Assembly (NCBI GenBank): GCA_965233585.1
Contig: CBDDTI010000647.1
Span: forward strand, 1-16,385
Direction of reading: 5' to 3'
DNA length: 16,385 nucleotides
Source of the DNA: a bacterium
Lineage (GTDB): Bacteria > SAR324 > NAC60-12
The notes beneath the pieces were generated by a model that was not told the origin of the DNA, searched no databases, and saw only the letters and a program-made list of their open reading frames with translations. This document shows, piece by piece, positions 3,912-6,510 of the stretch (its first letter is position 1; every line of letters starts with the position of its first letter). Made by a program: the position numbers and the translations under genes.

Positions 3912-4821
3912 TCAGTCGTTATCGCCATCAGAGTCTCGATCAGAGATTGCTGGCAATGAGGCGTAGAAACGTTTCGCAGTTTCAGATAAATATTTCTGAG
4001 CTAGCTTTATACAGTCCTGCTTAACATCATCTCGAATGGGTTTCCTTTCTAGTCTCACTGGAACCAGATGCTCAGCCGCGATCAATTCCACGCCCTGCTT
4101 TTTCTTAAGAAACAAAACAATTCTTCACTTTTCCTTCGTGTCCATTGTAAACCTTATAAATGGGGTTTCCGGATGCCAGCTTAGCTGTAAGTTCTCCTCC
4201 TGGTCGGTTATTTCTCCAGAACCAAAATTGATAAACGCGATCTTTCTTACTTCGAATTTCTCGTGTTCAATGTCCTCACTTCTAGCAATGTACTTCATTC
4301 TCAGAAAGCTTTTATAGTTCATAATCCAATCCAAATTCACCCAGTAACTTCTGACGTTATTTAAACGTCTGTTTCGAAGGGTCGTTTCCCACTCCTGTGG
4401 AGTTTCAATTTTTTCTTTGGTGTTGAAGAATTGCTGAATGCAGCCAAACCGCCTGTCACAAATTGAAAATGAGTGCCCCTCCAGCAGAAATTTGAGATCT
4501 ACTCTTAGGAAGTCACCCTTTCTAACAATATGATCCAGGTAAAAAAAATAGGTAGGATTATTTAAACTGAGCCGGCGAGTTATCTGCCCACAGTATAAGG
4601 TGATGGAATTTACCGTGTTTTTCCTGAAGGCTTTTCAGAAGATAGTTCAGCAAAGATATTACCTCGTTTGGACCGGTTCCTCCAATCGATTCATCATAAA
4701 AGAAACAGTGAATTATATCTTCATTGGCACAAATCCCGAAGAGGTTAGTCCGTAGCTTCCTCGCGTAAAAGCCATCCTGGGAAGAAACTTTTGGTGTCCG
4801 TAAGCACTTATGGTAATCCAT
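3912..4821 (-). pseudogene. Sola1-like transposase, C-terminal catalytic (DDD) half, disrupted
   Basis: Reconstructed as MDYHKCLRTP..FYARKL..FFYDESIGGTGPNEVISLL..LWADNSPAQFK*SYLFFYLDH..KFLLEGHSFSICDRRFGCIQ..KPIRDDVKQDCIKL..FYASL. This matches the Sola1 motifs D-x4/5-PTP, FYxRKL, GxNE, DNxxxQxK and GHS/TxxxCD. Lesions are stops at 4558-4560 and 4125-4127 and a frameshift at or near the A8 run at 4541-4548. Confidence 0.8.
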
Positions 4822-4922
4822 TTGGAGAGTTAATACCCTCGGTAACTTATTAAGGGCAGGATTTATTATTCAATTGTGTCTTGTCGACGTATTCAGTTGG
4901 GTTTGCATACGAGAATTTGCGT

Positions 4923-5331
4923 GCTACGCAAAACGTTAACTGTAAGAGCGCGCACACGACGTTGCGCGGGTAATAACTCCCACGTTAAGGCCGTTGGGTC
5001 AGATATAGAGATAAGCTCAACCACAGCATTACCCGAGCAGGGAACTTAGAGGGCAAAAGGTAAAGCTATTTAGCAATGCTGGTTACGCCGCGAAACTGCA
5101 GAAAAATGCTTTGAAATCTTACTTCCATGTACTTTTGCATCTGACTAAATAAAAGAAGAAAGCAACTAAATTTCCATTTTCACTTGTTTGGAGCAAGGTT
5201 TGAGTAACTTTTTAAGAAATTACGGGCAACTTTTTGGGAAATCTTGAGCAACTCGTGCAAATCCAAAGCTACGCTATTCAAAACGCGTAATTCTGTAAGA
5301 GCACCCGTGCGGCCCTGCGCGTGAAATAACT
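4923..5331. promoter_or_regulatory. CpG-rich divergent intergenic region with a duplicated ~60-bp motif
   Basis: GCTACGC..CAAAACG..CTGTAAGAGC..TGCGCG..AATAACT occurs at 4923-4978 and 5268-5331. A promoter role is inferred only from its position. Confidence 0.4.
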
Positions 5332-5463
5332 TCGGGCGTATACGTAACTGCAGTAGCTTCTGTCGACGTAAAGCTCGTTCGGTCGCGCGGGAGATTAGCC
5401 AAACCATACACCTGACTTGTGTGCTTAGACAGAAATTAGAGCGCCTATAGATTGGTTTTTAAC

Positions 5464-6510
5464 ATGCTGCGTTCTACTCATCAATTAAATGCAGAGCCCA
5501 GAGACACAGACAGTATAGATTTAAATCTACTTGTGTACAAATTTGATGCCAGAAAGCCATGCCAACAGTTTAAGGAGGGTAATCCTGTTGCAATTTCAGT
5601 GGAAAGAGGGAGAAGAAACTTAAACTCTAAAGAGTTAAAAAGGGTCTACCTGCCAAAGAAAAAGAAAACGTGGATTAGACGTAAAAATGGAGCTTTTAAA
5701 GACTTGAACCAGTTGCAATTTACCTGCTGCGATAGTGGTTGTCTCTTAAAAGAAGGCTTATTCAGTATTAAAGGTATTGCCAGAGAGCAAAGAAACCTGC
5801 TATATCAGAAACCATATAATGAACAGAACCACCTTTTGTCAAAGCTCATGGAAGTAGAACTGACATTCAGAGGCGTACGGAAAATTTTGTACCATGTACC
5901 ATCGCTCGGAAAAGTTTGCAAGACTGCGTTCCGGAAAGTATACGGTATTTCTAAGAGCAAAATTGAAGTTTTGCTTAAAAAGATCGACTAAGACGGGTTG
6001 CTCACAGAACCAGACAGAAGGGGGCGAAAGACTCCTCGCAAACTTCTCCCCGAAGCAAGAGATGCTGTCATCGACTTCATTCTTTCTTATGACGCTACGG
6101 AATCAAACTATAGGAGAGCCAGAAGTGACTGCAAGAAATAGTTTCATTCCAACATTTCGATGCACCAAATGTGGTCTCAATTCGTTCGTGAACAACCTCA
6201 TTTAATGACAACCAGCCTTAAAAACAAAAATAAGGGACCTGTAATTAGTTTTTCAACTTTTAGAAATATATTTAACAGGGAACTGAAAGATGTTCTAAGC
6301 TTTAGAAAGTTCAGAGTTGATACTTGTCAAGAGTGTGACAAATGTAAGAATAGGCTTGACAGACTACGATCGTTCAACAATCGATCTAGCAGGAAAGACG
6401 ACGAAATTCGTGATCTCATAACTCATCGGAGCCTACACCTTCGAGAAAGTGAGGGCAGATTTGCGTCCTTGAGATATGATGTCACAGTTCTAGCAGCAAA
6501 AGTGTATTGA
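5464..6510 (+). pseudogene. Sola1-like transposase, N-terminal (DNA-binding/Zn) half, disrupted
   Basis: One frame of ~348 codons with two in-frame stops (5989-5991, 6139-6141). Motifs CC..GC, VCKTAFRKVYGIS, DRRGR, ESNYRR, SFSTFRNIF, LSFRKFRVDTCQECD and H..HL match the region that precedes the catalytic core in Sola1-like proteins. Confidence 0.75.

Follow-up and report, generated by a model that had tools for sequence, protein, structure and literature searches.

A probable two-subunit Sola1-like transposase of stony corals, with a decayed copy in an assembly filed as prokaryotic

Introduction

The Sola1 transposons of insects are elements of 2.3–2.8 kb with a single open reading frame (ORF) of 630 aa, and a 4-bp AWWT target-site duplication (TSD) is described as a hallmark of the group (PMC3845634, citing Bao et al. 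2009). Here we describe a Sola1-like element of a different build, found in a 16,385-nt stretch of DNA that we call the window (contig CBDDTI010000647.1 of assembly GCA_965233585.1). Its transposase is present as two head-to-head halves, an N-terminal half (N-half) at 5464–6510 on the plus strand and a C-terminal half (C-half) at 3912–4869 on the minus strand. Our reading, to which we give a probability of about 0.7, is that the window holds a decayed copy from a scleractinian-coral clade of Sola1-like elements whose transposase consists of two subunits.

Sola transposases use a DDD triad. A core with three Asp residues and the motifs CxC...C, VCK-x-AF, RG-x-H, SHY, and DTC-x-x-CD are common to the two halves and to fused DUF7869 proteins of 627–670 aa. 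The Sola1-like label is an indirect one, drawn from the motifs named in the original prediction and from the fit in size between these fused relatives and the 630-aa ORF. While Sola1 of insects, Hydra, and others is a single-ORF element, the coral element has two ORFs, each with its own start and stop, which lie on opposite strands at 17 of 17 loci that hold both halves. Moreover, Sola1 insertions carry AWWT duplications, whereas neither these nor terminal inverted repeats (TIRs) were found for the coral element.

PIF/Harbinger elements encode a DDE transposase and a separate Myb-like DNA-binding protein, whose genes may stand in different orientations. The coral element is alike in principle, as two element-encoded proteins would share the work, one binding DNA and one cutting it. 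The two systems are nevertheless unrelated: the sole Pfam family returned was DUF7869, hit by the C-half, the N-half had no hit at all, and neither DDE_Tnp_4 or Plant_tran nor Myb/SANT was hit. In addition, the second Harbinger protein is an added partner, whereas the two coral proteins together make up what relatives have as a single chain, with the tail of the N-half predicted to pack on the catalytic fold. Activity is likewise split over two polypeptides in Tn7 (TnsA and TnsB) and in insertion sequences (IS) with orfA and orfB, and TnsB is among the fold matches of the C-half. Both Tn7 subunits are nucleases with distinct roles, and the ORFs of IS3 and IS1 are co-oriented and fused by frameshifting. 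The coral ORFs, in contrast, lie on opposite strands, are eukaryotic, and place the catalytic core in one half only.

Among the matches listed in a literature search, heteromeric transposases were of the Tn7 kind only. No description of a split Sola element was found among them, judged by titles and the beginnings of abstracts, with most subscription papers and Repbase Reports outside the coverage; a Sola1-like transposase divided over opposite strands is apparently undescribed so far. To our knowledge, DDE transposases of the cut-and-paste kind are regarded in eukaryotes as single-chain enzymes, and the known two-protein eukaryotic case, PIF/Harbinger, adds an unrelated partner. If our reading is true, a single chain that was severed at the border between two domains, distributed over both strands, and then maintained by selection through deep divergence would be a natural experiment that bears on transposase modularity and on the self-regulation of such elements, and controllable gene-transfer tools could build on a transposase that is already split. 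In annotation work, gene callers and repeat annotators will take such an element for broken copies or for a pair of fragments that have nothing to do with each other.

Results

Opposite-strand layout of the two halves

Contigs of the window's own assembly are named C### below, the window being C647; metagenome loci are named L### and proteins P####. Within the assembly, the halves lie on opposite strands in all six contigs that hold both, and these contigs fall into two families. Family A (C647, C639, and C532; 91–99% protein identity to the window) is head-to-head throughout, and family B (C621, C641, and C372; 43–62% identity to the window) is tail-to-tail throughout. Two further contigs, C121 and C190, carry a single half each, at the contig end. 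Because the window shares colinear stretches of 9–13 kb with C639 and C532 and the family-B contigs are colinear among themselves over kilobases, the copies within each family were counted as one lineage.

A pattern scan of public metagenome contigs yielded at least 28 loci, and the six-frame translations of 28 of these were searched with profile hidden Markov models of both halves. Among the matches listed, 11 of the 28 hold both halves, on opposite strands in every case; six of these are convergent (L017, L019, L020, L022, L023, and L028) and five divergent (L024, L025, L026, L030, and L034). No N-half was found on the same strand as the C-half at any of the 28 loci among these matches, and the remaining 17 loci, most of them on short or decayed contigs, carry a C-half only. 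Taking the six contigs of the assembly and the 11 metagenome loci together, the halves are on opposite strands at 17 of 17 loci and colinear at none. L022 and L023 are repeats of one place, as are L024, L025, and L026, and the removal of such repeats leaves about six independent lineages. These share 45–65% identity, with one clade divergent like the window and the rest convergent. In the other divergent loci L024–L026 and L030, spacers of about 510–680 bp separate the matched halves.

The original prediction, made from the window alone, had suggested a bipartite transposase expressed as two subunits from a bidirectional promoter and had named a one-off inversion in a dead copy as the alternative. 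A conserved split is supported by the 6/6 contigs and 11/11 metagenome loci, and its presence in about six lineages contradicts a one-off inversion. Had the window copy been the only split one, its homologues should have been colinear; the opposite was found, with no colinear case among the 17 loci. The bidirectional layout applies to only part of the group: it holds for the window family, L024–L026, L030, and L034, but the other lineages are convergent, with their genes tail-to-tail.

The halves are also found as stand-alone proteins. C-halves form 106 clusters at 90% identity, with full-length members of about 300–330 aa; those with a named source belong to Oculina patagonica and Desmophyllum pertusum, both stony corals. 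Stand-alone N-halves form 52 clusters at 90% identity, none exceeding 393 aa and one coming from Acropora millepora. Some clusters of the C- and N-halves contain more than 100 member sequences, and the coral gene models of NCBI give each half as a separate "uncharacterized protein." A scan of a genome-contig collection for relatives gave no match.

Gene boundaries, selection, and trees

The boundaries of the two genes were examined in alignment A1, with 24 C-half sequences, and alignment A2, with 23 stand-alone N-halves, of which 22 rows are complete. The stop codon of the N-half follows a conserved YD..VL.K motif at a distance of 2–9 codons in six lineages and of 2–19 residues in those 22 rows. 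Downstream of this motif the letters are not conserved in the six lineages, and no conserved GT splice donor recurs after the N-half in them; on this ground, a reading of the halves as two exons of a single gene was rejected. At the other boundary, 14 of the 24 C-halves of A1 have a Met 8–9 residues ahead of the first Asp, as counted from the alignment, and another six have one a few residues further upstream. In-frame stops occur 1–41 codons upstream of the C-half start, and the sequence upstream is unlike between lineages.

Both ORFs are intact in C621, L017, L020, L023, L025, and L026. The ratio of nonsynonymous to synonymous substitution rates (dN/dS) between C621 and L017, which have different flanks, is 0.16 for the N-half and 0.08 for the C-half at dS of 0.18–0.19; between C639 and L030 it is 0.24 and 0.08, respectively. 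Comparisons between lineages gave a proportion of synonymous differences (pS) of about 0.8, at which these sites are saturated, and a proportion of nonsynonymous differences (pN) of 0.20–0.35. Purifying selection acts on both halves (dN/dS 0.08–0.24).

Quick IQ-TREE runs of the N- and C-halves, rooted on five fused proteins, set the split clade apart from these five outgroups with an SH-aLRT support of 100. Whichever half is used, the loci of the divergent type group together as a single clade (support 97–99), so a single change of layout suffices, and the two halves have evolved together.

Fit of the halves to fused relatives

The fit of the halves to single-chain relatives was tested with intact family-B paralogues, N-half P0108 and C-half P0001. 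Residues 177–375 of P0108 align to residues 182–377 of the fused 667-aa protein P0167 (E = 2e-19), and residues 25–321 of P0001 align to residues 379–655 of the same protein (E = 5e-17). With the alignment to P0167 contiguous in this way, the halves abut exactly at the linker and nothing is duplicated or lost, just as had been predicted from the window.

A search of 1.84 billion representatives with the C-half profile brought up 5691 relatives with E ≤ 0.001. They include fused relatives of 627–670 aa, in which the match begins at about residue 350–380; one of these is P0186, which belongs to DUF7869 and comes from the bug Apolygus lucorum. The Pfam family DUF7869 (PF25273) is hit by the window piece 4125–4634 (minus strand) with 27.4 bits against a cut-off of 26, and its scores are 53.6 bits for C639, 40.2 for the family-B C-half, and 35.3 and 42.7 for fused relatives. 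The N-half gave no Pfam family at E up to 0.1 and matched only arthropod clusters without names in the ESM Atlas. The 657-aa protein P0130 is a doubtful candidate for a close fused form: over its N-terminal 356 residues, similarity to the N-half stays below significance (best E 0.024).

Modeled alone with AlphaFold2 at a predicted local distance difference test (pLDDT) score of 83.3, the C-half matched retroviral integrase cores, IstA, and TnsB in Foldseek (E 1e-4 to 1e-3; target template-modeling (TM) score 0.4–0.5). The model points to an RNase H-like core, and the three Asp residues conserved in A1 are its candidate catalytic residues.

Co-folding of the two halves

N-half residues 30–375 and C-half residues 18–325 were co-folded, each with its own alignment. 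The interaction prediction score from aligned errors (ipSAE) was 0.83 in three of three runs, compared with 0.00 for the best of three controls. In calibration, 116 of 157 solved complexes attain this ipSAE mark, as do 2 of 215 mismatched pairs; these counts are rough here, own alignments having been used. The pLDDT was 86 for the partner and 65 for the other chain, and at least 66% of contacts recurred between runs. On the N side, the confident contacts involve the last helix (347–369) and residues 49–58 and 317–321, while on the C side they involve the strands 20–26, 59–60, 100–105, and 137–147. No sequence relative of either half is present in the Protein Data Bank, and the co-fold pass is therefore not a recall of a solved complex. 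Overall, the co-fold model supports binding of the N-half to the C-half. The original prediction had suggested checks on the N-half stop and C-half start, on dN/dS, and on a model of the complex, and these came out in favor of the split: the two positions are kept across lineages, both halves are under purifying selection at 0.08–0.24, and the ipSAE was 0.83 against 0.00 for the best control.

Relatives in RNA libraries

Assembled contigs from three RNA libraries of three studies cover both halves at 88–95% likeness. The contigs of the C side and the N side are separate in two RNA runs, with C reaching 4935–5090 and N starting from 5316 or 5685, which is a weak hint of separate expression. Gaps in coverage, such as 5090–5316 in run X17, and the small word shares of 0.07 carry no weight here. 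The RNA data show only that relatives of the halves occur in RNA libraries.

Discussion

The proposed two-subunit transposase

The split itself, its conservation, the intact ORFs, the purifying selection, and the matching trees have all been shown. To account for them, we propose that an ancestral single transposase gene of about 650 aa was severed in its linker, immediately ahead of the first catalytic Asp. The cut would have produced an N-subunit of about 345 aa, Cys/His-rich and presumably DNA-binding, with a stop codon of its own, and a C-subunit of about 310 aa with a putative RNase H-like DDD core and a start codon of its own. As two genes on opposite strands, they would be translated separately, and we infer that the two polypeptides reassemble as one transposase, in which the terminal helix of the N-subunit is predicted to dock on the beta-sheet of the catalytic core. 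The genes stand head-to-head around a spacer of about 0.6 kb in the subclade of the window and tail-to-tail in the other lineages. Separate expression, formation of the heteromer, transposition activity, and a promoter would all belong to such a system.

Several points weigh against a two-subunit transposase of a mobile element. The sample of loci is small, comes from coral-associated metagenomes, and includes some loci that were sequenced twice. No fused close relative was found among proteins of 570–2000 aa by a shared-word search, which is weak evidence of absence. In inverted-repeat scans, no TIRs flanking both genes were found in the window, in agreement with the original prediction, nor in C639, C621, L017, L019, L020, L023, L025, or L030; the sole end match, in L017, is 8 nt long and at chance level (E 0.55), and the termini may lie outside the short contigs. 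Likewise, no TSDs, AWWT included, were found for any lineage; the points at which the likeness among C621, L017, and C133 ends show no duplication and are not common termini. As element ends were not found, mobility is deduced from copy number and from copies in different flanks. A contig of 5209 nt from a polyA library spans both halves and the spacer, and the RNA-library contigs in general are unstranded, lack transcript ends, and may derive in part from DNA. The N-half alone is modeled poorly (AlphaFold2 pLDDT 64.8, predicted TM score 0.36), and its model gave no Foldseek match at E ≤ 0.001, so DNA binding by the N-half remains an assumption. The co-fold score may mirror intramolecular contacts learned from the fused relatives, and it has no bearing on events in living cells. 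Finally, the window copy is a pseudogene that is unable to make either subunit, and the original idea of this very locus as the source of two subunits has to be given up.

Alternative explanations

The halves could be a functional ORF pair that is not a moving element, either as a domesticated host gene pair or with one half acting alone, such as the N-protein as a repressor or DNA-binding regulator or the C-protein as a nuclease with another partner. We consider this unlikely. Such a pair would fit the lack of any TIR or TSD found and the individual listing of the halves as "uncharacterized protein" in the NCBI coral gene models, and the purifying selection is equally compatible with a host function. 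However, the copy number is high, with several diverged lineages and the 106 C- and 52 N-half clusters, two families are present in one host sample, decayed copies are common, and the family-B copies lie in different flanks. Furthermore, the halves always travel together, their trees match, and their co-fold scored 0.83 when the best control scored 0.00. An explanation by inert relics appears far less probable still. A one-off inversion in a dead copy or, in its wider form, relics of one old rearrangement that were spread by segmental duplication would be consistent with the dead copy in the window, with the three family-A contigs, which are colinear over 9–13 kb and so are segmental copies or alleles, and with the similar colinearity of family B. 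Yet about six lineages are saturated at synonymous sites and still have intact ORFs with low dN/dS in both halves, two layouts exist, divergent and convergent, and the start and stop positions are conserved.

It is also quite improbable that the halves are rejoined before translation, by trans-splicing or by DNA inversion, so that a single chain is made. All 17 both-half loci have the opposite-strand layout and none is flipped. Behind the N-half no splice donor is conserved, the C-half has a conserved start Met in front of it, and the contigs of the halves are separate in two RNA-library runs. The idea draws on family B, where inverted repeats bracket the C gene, their arms changed together at one position, and could serve as inversion sites: flipping the bracketed cassette would put C after N on one strand. 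Even so, the N-half stop and a spacer of 400–600 bp would persist after the flip, and such repeats were seen in no other lineage. These repeats are 26–36 nt long, located in C621 at 6187–6222 and 7415–7450 (94%) and in L017 at 1357–1382 and 2351–2376 (100%), and one arm ends 6 nt before the ATG of the C-half. The position that differs between C621 and L017 is altered in both arms together. No further copies were present in the assembly or in the metagenome loci, which rules out that the repeat is the end of a miniature inverted-repeat transposable element (MITE) family.

Returning to the two-subunit transposase, an additional suggestion is that the split is an adaptive design, with the transposase active only when the opposite-strand subunits reassemble the fold in trans and with the family-B cassette perhaps also flipping. 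We regard this as speculative and rather doubtful. If it were true, transposition would depend on co-expression, and in the convergent layout the element would face antisense RNA of its own making; a flipping cassette would amount to a DNA-inversion switch acting on a eukaryotic transposase.

Features of the window copy

The window has about 39% G+C, few ORFs, and many repeats. Both decayed halves lie head-to-head where the original prediction had placed them. Lesions were read off by comparison with C639, the closest paralogue in the same assembly, whose intact 313-aa C-half ORF is 97–99% identical to the C-half of the window. The features are the following.

3912–4869, minus strand: C-half pseudogene, predicted RNase H-like catalytic core (Pfam DUF7869) and acidic C-terminal tail, natural stop at 3912–3914
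5464–6510, plus strand: N-half pseudogene, ATG at 5464–5466, natural stop at 6508–6510, terminal helix present
4849–5463, no strand: spacer of 615 bp between the divergent start codons, putative bidirectional promoter region
4846–4848, minus strand: family start codon of the C-half, ATG in C639 and AAG in the window
4816–4818, minus strand: first candidate catalytic Asp (LQMD), column D28, at least 90% conserved in A1
4582–4584, minus strand: second candidate catalytic Asp (W-x-DN), column D107, at least 90% conserved in A1
4455–4457, minus strand: third candidate catalytic Asp (GHS-x-S-x-CDRRFG), column D149, invariant in A1
near 4733, minus strand: 3-nt deletion in the C-half, compared with C639
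4558–4560, minus strand: nonsense codon in the C-half, compared with C639
about 4541–4548, minus strand: 1-nt insertion in a T run of the C-half, compared with C639
4125–4127, minus strand: second nonsense codon in the C-half, CCA in C639 and TGA in the window
5989–5991, plus strand: nonsense codon in the N-half, Gln in C639
6139–6141, plus strand: nonsense codon in the N-half, Tyr in C639

The N-half occupies a single frame (5440–6510, plus strand) that ends in RYDVTVLAAKVY followed by the stop codon, as had been read from the sequence at the outset, and its motifs CxCxxxC, VCK-x-AF, RG-x-H, ESHY, and DTCQxCD are all conserved. The C-half is broken into three stop-to-stop pieces on the minus strand (4869–4558, 4634–4125, and 4124–3912) and retains all three Asp codons of the candidate triad. 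In total, the window copy carries four nonsense codons and one frameshift and has lost the C-half start codon. Two details of the original prediction needed correction. The distance between the halves, put at about 640 bp, is 615 bp between the start codons, and the C-half, thought to begin at the Met before the first Asp, has its family start 9 codons upstream of the Met in QMDYHK, where the window reads AAG. At position 4541, the contigs of all four RNA-library runs compared with the window have one letter fewer.

The contigs of all four runs cease to resemble the window at 3904–3905, 7–8 nt beyond the C-half stop, and three of the four continue with a common sequence that is absent from the window; the 3′ flank of the C gene has seemingly been lost or replaced in the window family. 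A (TAA)30 microsatellite lies at 3630–3720, just past the C-half stop.

Repeats and assembly context

A direct repeat of about 3.5 kb occupies window positions 1–3494 and 12387–16331, with the two copies 92–100% alike and 12.4–12.8 kb apart. Together with the colinearity of C639 and C532, it places the window copy inside a large duplicated unit or tandem array. The region 8572–11610 contains a satellite-like array of 322-nt units, with 2.6 copies at 9349–10190 and more to 11499, as well as a 163-nt tandem pair at 10378–10702 and a perfect (TA)31 at 9116–9177. At 12215–12540 there is a near-perfect palindrome, whose 162-nt arms are 98% complementary and 2 nt apart; one arm is repeated at 1–145.

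Among the other copies, the family-A copy in C532 (L015, 8317–12285) has its N-half split by about 4 kb of inserted DNA, which carries an unrelated 147-aa ORF at 9673–10113 on the minus strand. In the family-B copy of C621 (L010), a repeat of about 220 nt has inserted at 5901–6120, in the interval that separates the two convergent genes. This repeat resembles a MITE or a short interspersed nuclear element and has matches on over 60 further contigs of the assembly. Position 3966 of C621 was considered as the left end of the element and rejected, as the break occurs in C621 alone and L017 and C133 are alike beyond it.

Of the 747 contigs in this assembly, which carries a prokaryotic label, only 43 (3.94 Mb) are ORF-dense; the other 704, with 8.06 of the 12.0 Mb, are ORF-sparse. 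A G+C content of about 39% in both sets may explain the mis-binning. Many ORF-sparse contigs share interspersed repeats with the contigs that carry this element. Going by the named relatives of the halves, the ORF-sparse contigs look like stony-coral host DNA, which would make this "bacterial" assembly mostly host DNA.

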